From NCBI RefSeq assembly GCF_050320075.1, contig NZ_CP190018.1: a DNA stretch of 64,000 bases, one strand, 5' to 3'. The DNA comes from Escherichia coli. Lineage in GTDB: Bacteria > Pseudomonadota > Gammaproteobacteria > Enterobacterales > Enterobacteriaceae. The notes under the pieces were generated by a model. It was not told the origin of the DNA. It ran no database searches and was given only the letters and a program-made list of their open reading frames with translations. Below are positions 5,130 through 37,061 of this stretch, one piece after another. The number at the start of each line of letters is the position of its first letter. The stretch's first letter is position 1. The position numbers and the translations under genes are program-made.

Positions 5130-5467
5130 ATGGAGATGTATTTTAAAAGAATGAAAGATGAGTGGACCGGGCTTGTCGAACAAGCAGATCCGCTCATTCG
5201 TGCTAAAGCCGCGGAAATTGCCGTTGCGCATGCCCATTATCTGAGTATTGAGTTTTACCGAATTGTCCGTATCGACCCGCATGCCGAAGAATTCTTGAGT
5301 AATGAACAAGTTGAGCGGCAGTTGAAAAGTGCGATGGAACGCTGGATTATTAACGTGCTTTCTGCCCAGGTGGACGATGTCGAAAGGCTAATACAAATCC
5401 AGCATACCGTTGCGGAAGTGCATGCCCGCATAGGAATTCCGGTAGAAATTGTCGAGATGGGGTTTCG
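5130..5467 (+). pseudogene. dosC: dosC 5' fragment (globin-sensor domain only), truncated by IS1
   Basis: MEMYFKRMKDEWTGLVEQADPL... matches the DosC N-terminus for about 112 codons. It then runs into the IS1 left inverted repeat at 5468, and the ORF ends in IS1 sequence at 5489. No GGDEF domain follows. Confidence 0.92.
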
Positions 5468-5522
5468 GGTGATGCTGCCAACTTACTGATTTAGTGTATG
5501 ATGGTGTTTTTGAGGTGCTCCA

Positions 5523-5798
5523 GTGGCTTCTGTTTCTATCAGCTGTCCCTCCTGTTCAGCTACTGACGGGGTGGTGCGTAACGGCAAAAGCACCGCCGGA
5601 CATCAGCGCTATCTCTGCTCTCACTGCCGTAAAACATGGCAACTGCAGTTCACTTACACCGCTTCTCAACCCGGTACGCACCAGAAAATCATTGATATGG
5701 CCATGAATGGCGTTGGATGCCGGGCAACCGCCCGCATTATGGGCGTTGGCCTCAACACGATTTTCCGCCATTTAAAAAACTCAGGCCGCAGTCGGTAA
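5523..5798 (+). CDS. insA: IS1 InsA
   Basis: A 91-aa zinc-finger/HTH protein, [32 protein letters not shown]... Confidence 0.95.
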
Positions 5799-6220
5799 CC
5801 TCGCGCATACAGCCGGGCAGTGACGTCATCGTCTGCGCGGAAATGGACGAACAGTGGGGATACGTCGGGGCTAAATCGCGCCAGCGCTGGCTGTTTTACG
5901 CGTATGACAGGCTCCGGAAGACGGTTGTTGCGCACGTATTCGGTGAACGCACTCTGGCCACACTGGAGCGTCTTCTAAGCCTGCTGTCGGCCTTTGAGGT
6001 CGTGGTATGGATGACGGATGGCTGGCCGCTGTATGAATCCCGCCTGAAGGGAAAGCTGCACGTAATCAGCAAGCGTTACACTCAGCGAATTGAGCGGCAT
6101 AACCTGAATCTGAGACAACATCTGGCAAGGCTGGGACGGAAGTCACTGTCGTTCTCAAAATCGGTGGAGCTGCATGACAAGGTCATCGGGCATTATCTGA
6201 ACATAAAACACTATCAGTAA
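5717..6220 (+). CDS. insB: IS1 InsB frame (expressed as InsAB' transposase by -1 frameshift)
   Basis: A 167-aa ORF overlapping insA. The AAAAAAC slippery site is at 5774..5780. Confidence 0.93.
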
Positions 6221-6235
6221 GTTGGAGTCATTACC

Positions 6236-6430
6236 GAAAATTCAACAGCAGAACCCGCTCTGGTTAATGCCATTGAGCAAGGCCTTCGGGCAGAGCACGG
6301 TGTTGTCACTGAAGATGACATTCTCATGGAGCTGACCAAATGGGTGGAAGCTTCTGATAACGACATCCTCAGTGATATCTACCAGCAAACGATCAATTAT
6401 GTGGTCAGTGGCCAGCACCCTACGCTTTAA
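6236..6430 (+). pseudogene. bdm: bdm lacking its promoter and first 7 codons
   Basis: The frame starting immediately after IS1 reads ENSTAEPALVNAIEQGLRAEHGVVTEDDILMELTKWVEASDNDILSDIYQQTINYVVSGQHPTL*. This is Bdm residues 8-71, with no start codon. Confidence 0.88.
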
Positions 6431-32513: not shown

Positions 32514-32741
32514 TTACATGCTGTAACCGGGTTTCTTTATCAAAGCCTCCATTTGGGGCGCGATTTCGGCATCCCAGATAGCTTGCCAAGATTCTGGTTG
32601 AATCTGCTGTAGAGAAATGCTTATCGAGCTATCTTTACTGTTCAGATGGCGAATAATAACGTCGGTAATATCTGCAGCAAGTGCTGCTTTTTGTTGTTCG
32701 TCCAGTTCACGCGGAAAACATTTAATGTCTATGTGCGGCAT
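32514..32741 (-). CDS. pptA: Tautomerase (4-OT family)
   Basis: ORF trimmed to [21 protein letters not shown] (catalytic Pro after Met), 75 aa. Confidence 0.9.
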
Positions 32742-33046
32742 GATTGTGCTCCTTTTGAAAGATGTCAGTAAAATTAACACACGTTGTGAATGTCGTGTGT
32801 CCGGTAATGCGTTTTTACGGCAATAATGCCTACTTGAAATTGTACATATTTGTACTACACACTTTTAAATAAAGCGCCAATGAAAACGTTAACTTGCAGA
32901 ATATATTCTTCGCCAACATGCCATTAAGAAAACATCAATTTCCCGGCTTGCCAATTTGTTAACGCCCATTATAGTTATTCTTGCCCTCACTAAAAATTTT
33001 CATCCGTAATTACCCCCAATAAAAATCCATTCTGGAGACGCTTAAG

Positions 33047-35023
33047 ATGCAGCTTAATCATATCGTTAAAAGTCTGCTAATAACGGGATTATTCACCACC
33101 AGTTCTTTACCTCTCCTCGCGGCGGAAGCTCCTAAAGACGCCACCGCAGCCACGCAACAAGCAAACAATTTACTCTACAACCAGTTGCCGTTTGCCGATA
33201 ACACTGACTTTACTGATGCCCATAAAGGTTTTATTGCCCCTATCCCTCAAGACGTGATTAAGGGCGAACAAGGGAATGTTATCTGGGATCCACAACATTA
33301 CGCTTTTATCAAAGAAGGCGATAAAGCCCCTGATACGGTGAATCCGAGTTTATGGCGTCAGGCGCAACTGATAAATATCAGCGGGTTATTCGAAGTAACT
33401 GAAGGTGTCTATCAGATTCGCAATCTCGATCTATCAAATATGACCATCATTGAAGGCAAAGAGGGTATTACCGTCGTTGATCCCCTTGTTTCAGCAGAAA
33501 CAGCCAAAGTGGGTATGGATCTCTATTACAAAAATCGCGGCAAAAAACCGGTAGTGGCGGTTATCTATACACACAGTCATGTCGATCACTACGGTGGTGT
33601 TCGTGGCGTAATTGATGAAGCTGACGTTAAATCAGGCAAAGTTAAAATCTATGCGCCAGCCGGATTTTTGGAGGAAGCCGTTTCCGAAAACATCATGGCT
33701 GGCAATGTTATGAGCCGACGAGCCAGTTATATGTATGGCAACTTATTGAAACCTGATGTTAAAGGCCAGGTGGGGGCTGGACTGGGAACGACTACTTCAG
33801 CAGGAACAGTCACGTTGATTGCTCCTACTAACTACATCACCAAAACCGGACAAATAGAAACTATTGACGGGTTGACTTATGATTTCCTGATGGCGCCAGG
33901 TTCTGAAGCGCCTTCTGAAATGCTGTGGTTTATTGAAGAAAAGAAACTGATCGAAACCGCTGAAGATGTCACGCACACCCTTCATAACACCTATTCGCTG
34001 CGTGGGGCTAAAATTCGCCAACCGCTGCCGTGGTCAAAATATATTAATGAAGCTCTCAATTTGTGGGGTGATAAAGCCGAGATTATTCTCGCTCAACATC
34101 ACTGGCCAACCTGGGGCAACGATAACGTGGTCAAACTGCTTAAAAGCCAGCGTGATTTGTATCGTTACATCAATGATCAAACTCTGCGCATGGCTAATCA
34201 AGGGATGACCCGTGATGAAATTGCCGCAAACTTTAAACTGCCCTCTTCACTGGCTAACACCTGGGCGAATCGCGGCTATTACGGTTCGGTAAGTCATGAC
34301 GTGAAAGCAACTTACGTGCTTTATCTCGGCTGGTTTGATGGTAACCCCGCGACGCTTGATGAACTGCCGCCAGAAGAAGGCGCAAAAAAATTCGTCGAGT
34401 ATATGGGCGGTGCTGATGCCATTTTACAGAAAGCCACACAGGATTATGACCAGGGTAATTTCCGCTGGGTTGCCCAAGTTGTTAGTAAGGTGGTGTTTGC
34501 CGATCCAAACAACCAGGCAGCGAGAGATCTGGAAGCTGATGCGCTTGAGCAGTTAGGCTATCAGGCTGAATCTGGGCCGTGGCGTAATTTCTATCTCACT
34601 GGTGCACAGGAATTGCGTAATGGCGTACAAAAATTACCAACACCAAATACTGCCAGCCCAGACACCGTGCGTGCGATGACGCCGGAGATGTTCTTTGATT
34701 ATCTTGCCGTCCATATTAATGGTGAGAAAGCGGCAGATGCCAAAACCGTGTTGAATTTCGATTTTGGTGAAGATGGCGGCACCTATAAAGTGGAGCTTGA
34801 AAATGGTGTTCTCAATCATACCGCTGGTGTAGAGGCTTCGGATGCTGATGCCACTATCACTCTGTCTCGTGATGTATTGAACAAAATTGTACTGAAAGAA
34901 GAGACGCTGAAAGAAGCCACGGCCAAAGGAGATGTCAAAATTACTGGCAATGAGGAAAAACTCAACGAGCTGTTAGGTTATATGGATAATTTTGAATTTT
35001 GGTTCAATATAGTGACACCATAA
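33047..35023 (+). CDS. Periplasmic alkyl/aryl-sulfatase, SdsA1/YjcS type (metallo-beta-lactamase fold plus SCP2-like C-terminus)
   Basis: A 658-aa ORF with GGAG upstream and signal peptide ...SSLPLLAAEAPKD. It has the HSHVDHYGG (HxHxDH) motif and the typical C-terminal tail ...GDVKITGNEEKLNELLGYMDNFEFWFNIVTP. As I recall the K-12 layout, it is not present at this locus there. Confidence 0.85.
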   Translation: MQLNHIVKSLLITGLFTTSSLPLLAAEAPKDATAATQQANNLLYNQLPFADNTDFTDAHKGFIAPIPQDVIKGEQGNVIWDPQHYAFIKEGDKAPDTVNPSLWRQAQLINISGLFEVTEGVYQIRNLDLSNMTIIEGKEGITVVDPLVSAETAKVGMDLYYKNRGKKPVVAVIYTHSHVDHYGGVRGVIDEADVKSGKVKIYAPAGFLEEAVSENIMAGNVMSRRASYMYGNLLKPDVKGQVGAGLGTTTSAGTVTLIAPTNYITKTGQIETIDGLTYDFLMAPGSEAPSEMLWFIEEKKLIETAEDVTHTLHNTYSLRGAKIRQPLPWSKYINEALNLWGDKAEIILAQHHWPTWGNDNVVKLLKSQRDLYRYINDQTLRMANQGMTRDEIAANFKLPSSLANTWANRGYYGSVSHDVKATYVLYLGWFDGNPATLDELPPEEGAKKFVEYMGGADAILQKATQDYDQGNFRWVAQVVSKVVFADPNNQAARDLEADALEQLGYQAESGPWRNFYLTGAQELRNGVQKLPTPNTASPDTVRAMTPEMFFDYLAVHINGEKAADAKTVLNFDFGEDGGTYKVELENGVLNHTAGVEASDADATITLSRDVLNKIVLKEETLKEATAKGDVKITGNEEKLNELLGYMDNFEFWFNIVTP

Positions 35024-35037
35024 ATTTACTGCATACC

Positions 35038-35060
35038 GGGCAGGTATCCTGCCCTTTTTT
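35038..35060 (+). terminator. Rho-independent terminator after the sulfatase gene
   Basis: GGGCAGGtatCCTGCCC followed by TTTTTT. Confidence 0.8.
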
Positions 35061-35069
35061 GGTTAAAAA

Positions 35070-36167
35070 ATGGCTGAACGAAGAAAAACTCATCACTCAT
35101 GGAAAACCCGCCGCGATATGGTTATTCGCGGCATGACGATTAGTTTGCCATGGTTTGCTTTTATCAATGTCAGTTTTGCATTGATAATTTTGCTGCGCCG
35201 TGTTCTGTTTAATGACCTTACTCCACCCTGGTTAAATGAAAAAAGCCTTATACATTCTATTGATATATCTGCAACGGGTATTCTGCTGATTTGCAGTGGT
35301 TTACTACTCATCCCTCGGCAAAAAACATTACCTATCCAGGTGCTATTAGTTGCCCTGAGCCTGCTATGGTCATGGTGTAGTTATCACTTTATTGCGTACT
35401 GGACGCTGCAGTTTGCTTATCCACTATGTGTATTATTAATGCTTAGTGGCGTTGTCGCACTTTATTTCCATACCCCATCATTGCTCGCATTTGTCATTCC
35501 CTTATGGTTCACCACTCCAATAGCGAGTCTTATGCTTAATCAACAGATCAATATTCATTTTGCTGTTGTATGGTGTATTTTTTCACTGGCGCTATATGGT
35601 GGGCGACTCATTTTGTTACGTTGGTTTGAAGAAGCATGGGTACAAAACAGTTATAACAACCAGTTAATTAATCGCCTTGATGCATTAGCACATCGTGATC
35701 CTTTAACTGGGATAGCAAACCGACGTGCAATGAACAGTATCTTACACGACGCGATGGATAACGGCGGGTCATTTGCTCTTATTATGCTGGATGTCGATTT
35801 TTTTAAACGTTACAACGACACTTACGGGCATCCTGCTGGGGATCGTTGTCTAATACAAGTTGCCGACGCTCTACAGCGTTCAACTCGCCAGTCGGAGGAT
35901 GTTGTTGTCCGTTATGGTGGCGAAGAGTTTGCCATCATACTTTTTAATGCAACATTGCCGGAAGCAGAGACGGTAGCAGCCAGAGTGAAGCAAGAACTTA
36001 AACTGGCAGCTATCCCACATCAGGCATCTGCTGTTAATGCATTTGTTACGGTTAGTCAGGGGATTACCTGTTCTGCTCCCGCAAAAACGGCTGAACAAAT
36101 TATTTCAGATGCCGACGCTGCGTTATACCGGGCGAAAGAAAGTGGGCGAAATCGATGGGCTTTATAA
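35070..36167 (+). CDS. Membrane-anchored diguanylate cyclase (about 6 TM N-terminal domain plus GGDEF domain, active-site GGEEF)
   Basis: A 365-aa ORF. The hydrophobic N-terminal half is followed by RDPLTGIANRRAM...DVDFFKRYNDTYGHPAGD...RYGGEEFAIILF. The start is uncertain: ATG 35070 lies only 10 nt after the terminator T-run, and in-frame alternative ATGs are at 35118 and 35133. Confidence 0.85.
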   Translation: MAERRKTHHSWKTRRDMVIRGMTISLPWFAFINVSFALIILLRRVLFNDLTPPWLNEKSLIHSIDISATGILLICSGLLLIPRQKTLPIQVLLVALSLLWSWCSYHFIAYWTLQFAYPLCVLLMLSGVVALYFHTPSLLAFVIPLWFTTPIASLMLNQQINIHFAVVWCIFSLALYGGRLILLRWFEEAWVQNSYNNQLINRLDALAHRDPLTGIANRRAMNSILHDAMDNGGSFALIMLDVDFFKRYNDTYGHPAGDRCLIQVADALQRSTRQSEDVVVRYGGEEFAIILFNATLPEAETVAARVKQELKLAAIPHQASAVNAFVTVSQGITCSAPAKTAEQIISDADAALYRAKESGRNRWAL

Positions 36168-36224
36168 GCATTAGGGGACTGGACAGATTACGTCTCTCCT
36201 CGCTTAACAAGGGCTGACGGAGGG

Positions 36225-37061
36225 TAATAATTGTCTATAGCTATCTTCTTAGCGATGTCTTTCTGGTATCACATTGGATCGGTGCAATTATTTTTCCTTT
36301 AATACCCATTATGTTAAGAAATTCAGAAACAGCTGTAATCTCATTGTTTTTTTCATTCGTCTTGATCTTCCAAGGAATCTGACTGTGCATTATTGAGAAC
36401 ACACTAATAACGTGAATCGCTCCCTTGCGACGACTCTTGTCATAAGAGTACCGGAGCGTTTTTCCATCAATTGCAATGACGTCTTTATCATCTGAAGAAT
36501 GGCAGTCAAGCATCCAGTTAATAAAGCACTCATAAAATTTTTCAGGACTGATACAGGATACAACTCTGGCAATGGTATCGTGAACAGGAATACCATTATC
36601 AAAATCACCATATTGCTTCAAAAAATCGAGATGTGTTTCCCCAAAATCCTCTATATCTTCCCAGCCTTCTGCACCCGAAATAACGGCACAAATAGTCAAC
36701 AGTAGAATATCCGATAATTTATGTTCCACTTTCCAGGCTTGTCTGTAATCGGGGATAATAGAAATATGTCCCATCAATTTTTTAAGTTCCATTTTGTTCT
36801 CCTTAATTATGTAAGGAGTATTTGATCATGTATACGCAATAAAAAACAGCTTCAGGTAATGAGGAATATCTCAATTGTTAAACATAAAATGCGAATTGTC
36901 TAGTACAAAAAAGCAGCGTTACGTGATCTTTCCGTGGATCGTCAAATTGTTCGAGAGAAAATACCAACATGATGGATTTTACTGTAAAAGTAATGTCGTA
37001 GTTTAAAAACTCATCATCCGGTAAAGCCTTGTGGGGCGTGGGCTTTCATACTTTTACCCTG
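36225..37061 (-). mobile_element. H-repeat / ISAs1-family element, 3'-truncated remnant
   Basis: The outer end ...GGGCTTTCATACTTTTACCCTG at 37061 matches the inverted repeat of the complete copy at 43800. The transposase frame degenerates after about residue 165, and homology (…QKDIAKKI in a shifted frame) stops near 36225. Confidence 0.75.
36241..36792 (-). pseudogene. ydcC: H-repeat (ISAs1-family, DDE) transposase N-terminal fragment
   Basis: [62 protein letters not shown]... The 183 aa compare with about 378 aa for a full-length H-rpt protein. The end is frameshifted. Confidence 0.8.

Follow-up and report, generated by a model that had tools for sequence, protein, structure and literature searches.

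dgcY of Escherichia coli, a predicted MASE5-GGDEF diguanylate cyclase gene located behind an alkyl-sulfatase gene

Described relatives and identity of the gene

It is well documented that GGDEF and EAL gene content varies among strains of Escherichia coli. The name DgcY was reportedly given by Povolotsky and Hengge in 2016 (J Bacteriol 198:111). A table in PMC12355678 has the DgcY entry (ACB15888.1) at 349 aa and, according to a preprint (bioRxiv 10.1101/2021.12.20.473597), dgcY and the alkyl-sulfatase gene EcSMS35_1714 were first described together in strains SMS-3-5 and CE10. In the SMS-3-5 genome (NC_010498.1) the gene order is pptA, sulfatase, GGDEF, with dgcY located between that sulfatase gene and yncG. 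The same architecture, a MASE5 domain followed by a GGDEF domain, occurs in YreP from Salmonella, DGC3134 from Pantoea sp. YR343, and EL-703 from Enterobacter ludwigii. These proteins are 48-52% identical to DgcY and have in common with it the invariant motifs PW, RWFEEAW, R-x-x-x-D, and GGEEF. DGC3134 has been described as lacking the RxxD motif and as having a promoter that is more active in biofilm.

To our knowledge, ImcA from Pseudomonas aeruginosa is the only 6TM-GGDEF enzyme with a solved structure (PDB 8wcn). Like DgcY, it joins six transmembrane helices to a GGEEF cyclase domain. ImcA forms a homodimer through its transmembrane domain, which is required for activity, and is under the control of the partner protein IsmP; no such partner is known for DgcY. 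PleD, WspR, and DgcZ contain GGDEF domains homologous to that of DgcY (31-38% identity), catalytic residues included; they differ from it in having an RxxD motif five residues before GGDEF, where DgcY has a glutamine in place of the arginine.

We analyzed a 64-kb stretch of E. coli DNA (64,000 nucleotides, here called the window). An open reading frame at 35070..36167 on the + strand, 365 codons plus stop in the list of translated reading frames, had been put forward as an accessory cyclase with an uncharacterised sensor. It is not a new cyclase gene but the previously known dgcY, predicted to encode a membrane-bound enzyme that makes c-di-GMP. Its product is identical to the SMS-3-5 protein from the same locus at 360 of 365 residues (98.6%, five substitutions), and the gene directly follows the same alkyl-sulfatase gene next to pptA. 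RefSeq annotates it as 349 aa long, as in SMS-3-5; this is also the length of ACB15888.1, which was compared by name and length alone, the identification being based on secondary citations and the SMS-3-5 genome. The locus differs from that of SMS-3-5 in that an ISAs1/RHS insertion parts dgcY from yncG. Homology to SMS-3-5-type genomes stops at approximately 36159 and the junction altered the last two codons of dgcY (AL* vs EK*). The edge of the inserted ISAs1/pentapeptide/RHS block, directly after dgcY, is an ISAs1-family transposase gene remnant (36242..36792, - strand; a RefSeq pseudogene with Pfam domain DDE_Tnp_1_assoc). Little here is new, since the gene, the MASE5 family, and the sulfatase pairing had all been recorded before.

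The membrane domain and the catalytic domain

The N-terminal region had been described as a six-helix membrane sensor with no domain that could be named. The six helices held up, hydropathy placing six hydrophobic segments within residues 24-184, but the domain does have a name. Residues 25-206 (35142..35687, + strand) match MASE5 (PF17178) with 150.8 bits against a gathering cut-off of 25.2 (E = 5.3e-44), covering profile positions 2-192 of 192. A match to a MASE family with a defined signal had been named as evidence that would count against the original prediction; the family match was obtained, and no defined signal for MASE5 or for any MASE5-GGDEF member was found in the literature searched. 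As expected of MASE5 proteins, the GGDEF domain directly follows this integral-membrane, multi-helix region. The AlphaFold2 model of the full-length protein (mean pLDDT 87) places helices at residues 14-41, 58-80, 86-111, 116-131, 135-157, and 162-207, mostly with pLDDT above 85. In this model the last transmembrane helix (162-207) continues as a long cytoplasmic helix that bears the invariant RWFEEAW motif.

Comparison of a MASE5-only model with the PDB using Foldseek gave no match with E <=0.001. The 6TM domain of ImcA was the sole PDB chain whose transmembrane bundle superposed on the model (TM-score 0.53-0.58 over 200-205 columns, rmsd 4.4-5.0 Å), a match that is weak by E value (0.86-0.94), has 11-13% identity, and involves a model rather than a solved structure. 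G protein-coupled receptors at the top of the Foldseek list were dismissed since their TM-scores were <=0.30, as for every PDB match other than ImcA.

The C-terminal part of DgcY, residues 207-362 (35688..36155, + strand), is a GGDEF domain (PF00990, E = 1.4e-48; TIGR00254) with an intact GGEEF active-site motif at residues 283-287 (35916-35930). Its best solved relatives are ImcA, WspR, SiaD, and PleD, with ImcA giving the best sequence match (E = 8e-32). We mapped onto DgcY the residues that we take to be those of PleD for metal binding, GTP binding, and transition-state stabilization. All of them (D241, D243, K246, N249, D258, R281, K356, and R360) are found in DgcY and do not vary among 60 family members. 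Based on its motif and these residues, DgcY is predicted to be an active diguanylate cyclase.

The inhibitory site (I-site) is different. At its position (35886..35900, + strand) DgcY has R273-Q-S-E-D277, which is RxxxD in place of RxxD; residues 273-287 read RQSEDVVVRYGGEEF, or RQSED-VVVRY-GGEEF. In an ungapped HMMER alignment the RSSD of WspR lies over QSED of DgcY, so that a glutamine occupies the canonical arginine position and the arginine is one residue upstream. DgcY thus contains no RxxD at a spacing of exactly five residues from GG(D/E)EF, whereas ImcA has the canonical motif (RRPLD) where DgcY has RQSED. The original prediction that the canonical I-site is missing and that RxxxD stands in its place is borne out, but the motif is no peculiarity of this strain. 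R-x-x-x-D was found in 120 of the 120 closest homologues, which marks it as a trait of the family rather than damage in this strain. The absence of RxxD is also common among GGDEF domains (21 of 77 sampled) and therefore says nothing special about the strain. The unusual features of the dgcY sequence are genuine, but they are common to the whole protein family.

Whether this motif could be a working inhibitory site shifted by one residue, with c-di-GMP feedback retained, depends on how its conservation is read. None of 60 family members, the most distant at 48% identity, departs from R273 and D277, and a matching R(-10)...D(-6) pattern occurs in four of 72 unrelated GGDEF domains sampled. In the I-site complexes of PleD and WspR, however, the arginine is exactly three residues before the aspartate, and a one-residue shift should point the side chain away. 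An aspartate at -6 with a basic residue near -10 is common in GGDEF domains, inhibited or not, and the invariance may instead be structural. We regard a functional shifted site as unlikely and favor a cyclase without RxxD feedback.

The alkyl-sulfatase gene, the intergenic terminator, and the start of dgcY

Upstream of dgcY and on the same strand is a gene annotated by RefSeq as an alkyl/aryl-sulfatase (33047..35023, + strand; 658 aa; Lactamase_B, Alkyl_sulf_dimr, and Alkyl_sulf_C domains). The gap between the two genes is 46 nt, or 94 nt to the RefSeq start of dgcY. Judged by its match to yjcS of K-12, which is one 180-nt patch of approximately 71% identity, the sulfatase gene is a paralogue and not an orthologue of yjcS. 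Its product has 85% amino acid identity to sulfatases that adjoin MASE5 cyclases in Salmonella, where the neighbor is YreP, and in Enterobacter.

dgcY and the sulfatase gene co-occur in E. coli (439 vs 436-443 of 5,426 genomes). Tandem sulfatase-cyclase pairs were found in relatives of E. coli (loci L003 and L006), in Enterobacter sp. (L015), in Leclercia (L097), and in Lelliottia (L098). In Leclercia, Lelliottia, and one Enterobacter the order of sulfatase gene, GC-rich hairpin, short spacer, and MASE5 cyclase gene is repeated at a different chromosomal site. Across four genera and two chromosomal sites the spacer from hairpin to called start is 4-38 nt, where the 4-nt value is that of Leclercia measured to the short-form ATG. 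The gene order varies elsewhere. In Salmonella the two genes are divergent neighbors with 285 bp between them, which implies a separate promoter for the cyclase gene in that genus. E. cloacae, Hafnia, Pantoea, and a taxon at L007-L009 whose protein is 65% identical to E. coli DgcY have the cyclase without the sulfatase, indicating that the link is not obligatory. These adjacency figures come from approximately 15 contexts obtained by targeted contig look-ups and are not a census; a contig scan with the back-translated family alignment mostly returned generic GGDEF matches, five of the 80 loci listed being true family members. The two genes are on the same strand, are separated by a short gap, and are paired across genera, as is expected of an operon. 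dgcY forms the downstream member of a two-gene unit with the alkyl-sulfatase gene, and this unit is found again in several genera of enterobacteria. The co-occurrence and the recurrent tandem layout are comparative data that back the earlier proposal that dgcY expression is coupled to the sulfatase gene.

Between the genes is a putative intrinsic terminator (35038..35060, + strand) comprised of a 7-bp stem with six G-C pairs, a 3-nt loop, and T6. The hairpin, GGGCAGG-TAT-CCTGCCC (35038-35054; dG -13.5 kcal/mol), begins 15 nt past the sulfatase stop codon (35021-35023) and is immediately followed by the T-run (35055-35060). This places a GC-rich hairpin and U-run downstream of a stop codon, the arrangement of an intrinsic terminator. 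In a scan of 18 kb no terminator-like site scored better. As a class such sites were not enriched (15 found, 19.2 expected from shuffles), so the case for this hairpin is made by how good it is, where it lies, and its retention in relatives. It is conserved in the Escherichia relatives at L003-L006. In Enterobacter L015, Leclercia L097, and Lelliottia L098 the corresponding place is taken by GC-rich hairpins that are not homologous to it. We rejected the idea that it is a repeated element such as REP because it occurs once in the 64-kb window. Nothing in Rfam matched 32700-36500 with E values allowed up to 1, so that no riboswitch or known leader RNA was found between the genes.

From the T-run to the ATG at 35070 there are nine bases, GGTTAAAAA, which is a shorter gap than in any T-run-bearing relative (38 nt in Enterobacter L015, 85 nt in E. 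cloacae). The original prediction of a terminator hard against the first ATG, with no space for a promoter, agrees with these findings: between the terminator and either start there is neither space for a sigma-70 promoter nor a sequence that fits one well. A leaderless transcript from 35070 was also rejected, there being no -10-like hexamer at 35057-63. The layout resembles that of operons in which an internal intrinsic terminator is partly read through. In these, too, the genes are on the same strand, a GC-rich hairpin and U-run lie just past the first stop codon, and the second gene begins too near for its own promoter, although here the resemblance is one of sequence layout alone.

The strongest promoter candidate lies upstream of the sulfatase gene. 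TTGCCA-16-TATAGT (32948..32975, + strand) matches the sigma-70 consensus at 10 of 12 positions and, at 13.0 bits, is the top of a PWM scan of the whole 64-kb window; it is a candidate by consensus match alone. We propose it as the source of transcripts that reach dgcY. The same scan found no promoter match above background in the 500 bp scanned upstream of dgcY. The recurrent order of sulfatase gene, hairpin, spacer, and cyclase gene supports coupling to the sulfatase gene and favors leaky read-through from the sulfatase promoter into dgcY. With six G-C pairs and a perfect U6 the terminator looks efficient, and read-through could be very low.

A different arrangement would have dgcY transcribed from its own weak promoter, located within the terminal 70 bp of the sulfatase gene or over its stop codon, with the hairpin acting as a leader attenuator or a stabilizing stem-loop. 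The best candidates for this, in the range of 7.7-8.6 bits, are TTGGTT-16-TAAATT (34999-35026, predicted start near 35034) and TGGATA-19-TATAGT (34983-35013), and sigma-S promoters with a poor -35 element are common among E. coli cyclase genes. Equal scores, however, arise about once per 800 bp per strand of the window, so that chance alone would supply approximately 0.6 of them in the 500 bp scanned, and any transcript that starts upstream of 35038 must still cross the hairpin and U6. TAAATT is also not kept, the stop region being CCGTAAACC in Leclercia and CCGTAACCT in Lelliottia. A promoter of this kind seems rather unlikely to us, and we continue to favor read-through from the sulfatase promoter.

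The position of the start codon bears on the same question. The first ATG is present at 35070, as originally predicted, but RefSeq instead annotates an internal ATG at 35118 (349 aa). If 35118 were the true start, a promoter could overlie the terminator and first ATG and yield a short leader, and dgcY would be insulated from the sulfatase gene and uncoupled from it. The internal start was chosen by the NCBI pipeline, several homologues are called at the corresponding start, and Met17-Val18 is invariant in an alignment of 20 sequences and nearly invariant in one of 60. A 7-bp hairpin (35110-35132) holds its ATG in the loop, and E. cloacae has 85 nt between the upstream terminator and the gene, with a TTGATG-16-TATAGT match read by eye. 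By contrast, the top promoter match within 35061-35117 has just 5.4 bits (TTAAAA-16-AAAACT), and there is no Shine-Dalgarno sequence before 35118 or before 35070, where there is an A/U-rich stretch. The 16 codons that precede 35118 are open and ATG-initiated and have a dN/dS of 0.09-0.31, below 1. Most aligned homologues, those of Enterobacter among them, keep such an in-frame, ATG-initiated extension with its W-x-T-R-x-x-M-V motif, and the stretch MAERRKTHHSWK lies within it, in the N-terminus of the long form. The cyclase from Leclercia has a non-homologous N-terminal extension. In the AlphaFold2 model helix 1 begins at residue 14. Conservation thus favors 35070 without settling the matter and makes the RefSeq start doubtful; an uncoupled gene that starts at 35118 is distinctly improbable in our judgment.

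Distribution, loss, and proposed role

dgcY is present in approximately 8% of complete E. coli genomes. Strains without the module keep a stump of the sulfatase gene adjoining an ISAs1 element, which indicates loss and not gain. The module therefore looks ancestral and repeatedly lost through ISAs1-linked deletions, not acquired, and the word "accessory" for this cyclase is misleading. Over the whole gene dN/dS is 0.18-0.20, and purifying selection of this order argues that dgcY is functional. This bears on the idea that dgcY is silent here, a decaying passenger of the sulfatase gene behind an efficient terminator and with no ribosome-binding site. The strong hairpin and U6, the lack of a Shine-Dalgarno sequence and of a promoter match, and the loss of dgcY from most E. 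coli lineages are in keeping with silence. Yet dN/dS is low in both domains, about 436 complete genomes carry an undamaged reading frame at >=99% identity, the layout is maintained across four genera, and the catalytic residues are invariant. We consider a silent gene highly improbable.

The original prediction had also combined dgcY with the loss of dosC and dosP from this genome. The loss itself is real. The dosC remnant (5130..5468, + strand) consists of codons 1-113 as read from the sequence and is cut by an IS1 copy (5469..6236, + strand), immediately upstream of bdm, whose terminal repeat at 5469 directly abuts codon 113, so that its left end is the junction. Compared by BLAST with the near-identical strain YZLc1-3, which has the same IS1 between osmC and bdm, 10,544 bp are missing; these contain the rest of dosC, dosP, ddpXABCDF, and osmC. 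A 401-bp query across the dosC::IS1 junction, searched against 5,426 complete genomes, had no single-piece match among the matches listed; the three matches that covered it were in two pieces spanning 630-940 bp. The deletion is a separate, strain-private event that took place 30 kb from dgcY and is unrelated to it.

Taken jointly, the best explanation, and one that we hold to be reasonably probable, is that dgcY encodes a MASE5-GGDEF cyclase within a sulfatase unit, is transcribed by read-through, and lacks RxxD feedback. Transcription would begin at the sulfatase promoter, with most polymerases halted at the terminator and dgcY transcribed by those that pass it. Lacking a Shine-Dalgarno sequence, the message would yield little cyclase, in amounts that follow the expression of the sulfatase gene. 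By analogy with ImcA, a likeness seen by TM-score only, DgcY may work as a membrane homodimer, its MASE5 bundle controlling the register between the two stalk helices and thereby whether both GGDEF domains can meet. The paired domains would then join two GTP into c-di-GMP. With no RxxD, output would probably be limited by expression and the membrane signal and not by classical product feedback. The earlier suggestions that the cyclase escapes product inhibition and that detergents induce it are conjecture.

Our analysis adds several corrections. The sensor belongs to MASE5, absence of the I-site characterizes the whole family, the module appears to be ancestral, and the RefSeq start is doubtful. 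The thread worth following is the pairing of sulfatase and MASE5 cyclase, which recurs in at least five genera. Given that the literature searched gave no signal for MASE5, the sulfatase neighbor offers a concrete hypothesis on what that signal may be. Candidate ligands are the amphipathic substrate and product of the sulfatase in the bilayer, namely long-chain alkyl sulfates such as SDS-like surfactants and the fatty alcohols set free from them. As a long shot, the sulfatase and cyclase may form a sensing-and-response pair in which MASE5 senses alkyl sulfates or fatty alcohols, surfactant leads both to its breakdown and to biofilm protection through c-di-GMP, and the leaky terminator sets the ratio of enzyme to sensor.

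Identity and start codon of the cyclase gene

The open reading frame at 35070-36167 (+) has 365 codons from its first ATG and encodes a protein in which Pfam places two full-length domains, MASE5 (PF17178) at residues 25-206 (E = 5.3e-44; 150.8 bits versus a cut-off of 25.2) and GGDEF at residues 207-362 (E = 1.4e-48). The sequence-level statements of the original prediction were all correct when the window sequence was re-read; its view of the N-terminus as a six-helix sensor with no nameable domain did not survive, since MASE5 is a named Pfam family. The RefSeq entry for this gene (WP_000236740.1) is a GGDEF protein of 349 aa that starts at window position 35118. A table in PMC12355678 lists DgcY from E. 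coli as ACB15888.1, 349 aa long, and according to the SalmoNet2 preprint (bioRxiv 10.1101/2021.12.20.473597), SMS-3-5 and CE10 are the strains in which the alkyl-sulfatase EcSMS35_1714 and yreP, called dgcY in E. coli, received their joint first description. The gene order in SMS-3-5 is pptA, alkyl/aryl-sulfatase, a 349-aa GGDEF protein, and yncG. This GGDEF protein differs from the window protein at 5 of 365 positions, and the sulfatase-dgcY intergenic regions are identical, hairpin included. Based on this gene order and sequence identity, the window gene is dgcY, an already known gene with an already known domain.

Two ATGs, at 35070 and 35118, are candidate starts, and no Shine-Dalgarno sequence was read before either. 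In most aligned homologues (from Enterobacter, Lelliottia, Salmonella, and Hafnia) the 16-23 codons upstream of an invariant Met-Val are open and ATG-initiated, and most of these extensions carry a W-x-T/N-R-x-x-M-V pattern and a basic tail. Extension codons have dN/dS values of 0.09 and 0.29 against two Escherichia relatives, on small counts (4 synonymous and 2 non-synonymous changes; 5.5 synonymous and 10.5 non-synonymous), and in the AlphaFold2 model helix 1 begins at residue 14 in long-form numbering. These points argue for 35070. Arguing for 35118 are its choice by the NCBI pipeline, the conservation of Met17 (invariant in a 20-sequence alignment and nearly so in a 60-sequence alignment), and Leclercia, where the stretch upstream of the Met17 equivalent is non-homologous and encoded by the hairpin itself. 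We consider 35070 the likelier start, with 35118 keeping a substantial share of the probability. A 7-bp hairpin at 35110-35132, GCCGCGA-(UAUGGUUAU)-UCGCGGC, places the RefSeq ATG of 35118 within its loop.

Genomic history of the locus and the dosC/dosP deletion

We found dgcY in 443 of 5,426 complete E. coli genomes, with the match spanning at least 80% of the query in 436 and identity of at least 99% in 434; the sulfatase gene was complete in 439. The idea that this sulfatase gene is the orthologue of K-12 yjcS was rejected because similarity is limited to 180 nt at ~71% identity. In AR_0077, an E. coli strain that lacks the pair, pptA is followed by the first 70 nt of the sulfatase gene and then by an ISEc1/ISAs1 transposase gene (L095 3501-3570; window 32742-33116). 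The intergenic region and 70-nt stump are kept in 524 genomes, and most other pair-less genomes keep 50-89 nt beside pptA and nothing more. A taxon with a protein 65% identical to E. coli DgcY has its gene at the corresponding chromosomal position (nhoA-yddH-DGC-yncG), with the sulfatase absent. This shared place and the stumps point to a module that is old at the E. coli locus and has been lost repeatedly beside ISAs1 elements. The label "accessory" thus fits how the cyclase is distributed but not where it came from.

In the window strain, an ISAs1-remnant/pentapeptide-repeat/RHS block is inserted between dgcY and yncG (window 36155-36260; L101, the SMS-3-5 locus, 34360-34470), which abut in SMS-3-5. 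The match to SMS-type genomes ends at ~36159, and the junction alters the last two dgcY codons (..NRWAL-stop in the window versus ..NRWEK-stop in SMS-3-5).

For dgcY, dN/dS was 0.18 against a relative at 93% identity and 0.20 against one at 81%; in the same two comparisons the sulfatase gene gave 0.06 and 0.04. These values indicate that dgcY is under purifying selection, looser than that on the sulfatase gene, which implies that dgcY must be expressed. Synonymous divergence from the 81% relative (L006 2355-2930; window 35118-35687) reaches 0.84 in the MASE5 half, whereas the GGDEF half shows just 0.29 and the adjoining sulfatase gene 0.20; the MASE5 half seems to have its own history, by recombination or as a mosaic.

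The loss of dosC/dosP through IS1 was borne out within the 64-kb window. Window 950-5471 matches gadB...dosC of YZLc1-3, a near-identical strain, and from 5464 on the window follows YZLc1-3 again, beginning at the IS1 upstream of bdm; YZLc1-3 has 10,544 bp between these two matches that the window lacks. Only the first 113 codons of dosC remain, up to the IS1 terminal repeat (window 5130-6236); its 3' part, dosP, ddpXABCDF, and osmC are deleted from this locus. The event is a classic IS1-adjacent deletion. Among the 5,426 complete E. coli genomes, the dosC-IS1 junction had no listed single-piece match, suggesting that the deletion is probably recent and private to the window strain. Given this deletion, the c-di-GMP wiring does differ from that of K-12, as originally predicted, but the difference is ordinary and has no evident connection to dgcY. 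The same IS1 lies directly upstream of bdm, whose RefSeq version in YZLc1-3 is 5 codons short of the SMS-3-5 one. A second IS1 copy splits yddG (aromatic amino acid exporter; window ~15650-16930), as in YZLc1-3.

The I-site and the membrane domain

Across the I-site position and GGEEF, DgcY reads ...STRQSEDVVVRYGGEEF... In a HMMER alignment, ungapped around the motif, R-S-S-D of WspR falls on Q-S-E-D of DgcY, and the DgcY Arg lies one position upstream of WspR's I-site Arg. ImcA from P. aeruginosa has RRPLD at that place, a canonical RxxD, which DgcY lacks. The pattern R-x-x-x-D-x-x-x-R-Y-GGEEF occurs in all 120 of the closest homologues (at least 49% identity), and neither R273 nor D277 varies across a 60-sequence alignment. 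Among 77 GGDEF domains pulled in by a genome scan, 56 have canonical RxxD, 8 the shifted pattern alone (4 of them MASE5 proteins), and 13 neither. An I-site is likewise missing from several K-12 cyclases, DgcM among them, and Christen et al. (2006) reportedly saw RxxD in no more than about half of GGDEF proteins. The RxxxD predicted as a non-canonical I-site is present; judging from the 120 homologues and the 21 of 77 sampled domains without RxxD, lack of the canonical site is common and a family property.

The full-length AlphaFold2 model (mean pLDDT 86.8) has six membrane helices joined by very short loops. The sixth is unbroken over residues 162-207, running into the GGDEF domain, and this stalk bears an invariant RWFEEAW motif. 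When residues 1-212 were modeled separately (pLDDT 83.6) and compared with the PDB, no match was significant by E-value. This model superposed on the 6TM domain of ImcA (8wcn) with a TM-score of 0.53-0.58 and an rmsd of 4.4-5.0 Å, and all other PDB chains had TM-scores of at most 0.30. The catalytic half of DgcY, too, has ImcA as its best sequence match. The TM domain of ImcA joins two copies into a homodimer and is required for activity and regulator binding. On the pattern of ImcA, the most probable working form of DgcY is a membrane dimer; a signal within the membrane or a partner would shift the register of the stalk and so alter the pairing of the two GGDEF domains. The literature searched reports no signal for MASE5.

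Transcription of dgcY and its pairing with the sulfatase gene

The sulfatase gene (33047-35023, +) ends in TAA at 35021-35023, and 15 bases past this stop is the hairpin GGGCAGG-TAT-CCTGCCC (35038-35054, +), followed directly by T6 (35055-35060, +). Between T6 and the ATG at 35070 is GGTTAAAAA, confirming that the first ATG closely follows the T-run of a strong terminator-like element; the T-run is 9 nt from the start at 35070 and 57 nt from that at 35118. The hairpin has 7 pairs, 6 of them G-C, a folding energy of -13.5 kcal/mol, a single copy in the 64-kb window, and the top rank among terminator-like sites in an 18-kb scan. As a class, such sites were not enriched over shuffles in that scan (15 found versus 19.2 expected), so the case for the hairpin rests on its quality, its position just past the stop codon, and its conservation. 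An Rfam search of 32700-36500 found no known RNA element.

A sigma-70 scan of the + strand from 34000 to the dgcY start found no site. In a crude position-weight scan, the strongest sites in 34600-35117 scored 7.7-8.6 bits, all upstream of the hairpin; such sites occur about once per 800 bp in the window and are thus not above chance. The best site downstream of the T-run scored only 5.4 bits, in agreement with the predicted lack of promoter space before dgcY. The top score in the whole window was that of a candidate promoter upstream of the sulfatase gene, TTGCCA-16-TATAGT (32948-32975, +; 13.0 bits, 10 of 12 consensus positions).

Three Escherichia-like contigs (93% and 82% protein identity) keep the hairpin and its spacing, one with a stem mismatch and another with a changed loop and interrupted T-run. 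Enterobacter sp. UNJFSC 003, Leclercia, and Lelliottia have an 85%-identical sulfatase gene, a GC-rich hairpin, and a MASE5 cyclase gene on the same strand. The hairpins of Enterobacter (L015 3893-3975), Leclercia (L097 3461-3500), and Lelliottia (L098 3435-3500) differ in sequence and share their position; the Enterobacter hairpin is followed by a T-run and that of Lelliottia by a pyrimidine run, and the Leclercia one has neither. The called cyclase start comes 4-38 nt after the hairpin or its T-run, the 4-nt gap being that of Leclercia to the short-form ATG. Since the Leclercia hairpin, without a T-run, lies inside a possible N-terminal extension of the cyclase ORF, the hairpin may have a role beyond that of a simple terminator.

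The Leclercia and Lelliottia pairs lie between tynA and feaB, a chromosomal site unlike that in E. coli, and in Salmonella, at a third site, the two genes are divergent neighbours 285 bp apart. E. cloacae, a related metagenomic contig, Hafnia, and Pantoea have the cyclase but no sulfatase beside it. The E. cloacae cyclase gene lies 85 nt past the tynA terminator (L012 4886-5000), and by eye this spacer holds a plausible promoter of its own, TTGATG-16-TATAGT, indicating that the family is not always reliant on read-through. From these arrangements, the sulfatase-cyclase link is not obligatory; the frequent pairing suggests that it is functional, and the tandem form always appears in one compact layout. 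For these reasons we prefer leaky read-through from the sulfatase promoter as the source of dgcY transcription, an originally predicted reading that was reasonable and has comparative support from the tandem pairs in other genera. This recurrent sulfatase-MASE5 pairing is the sole lead with some promise, as a clue to what MASE5 senses.
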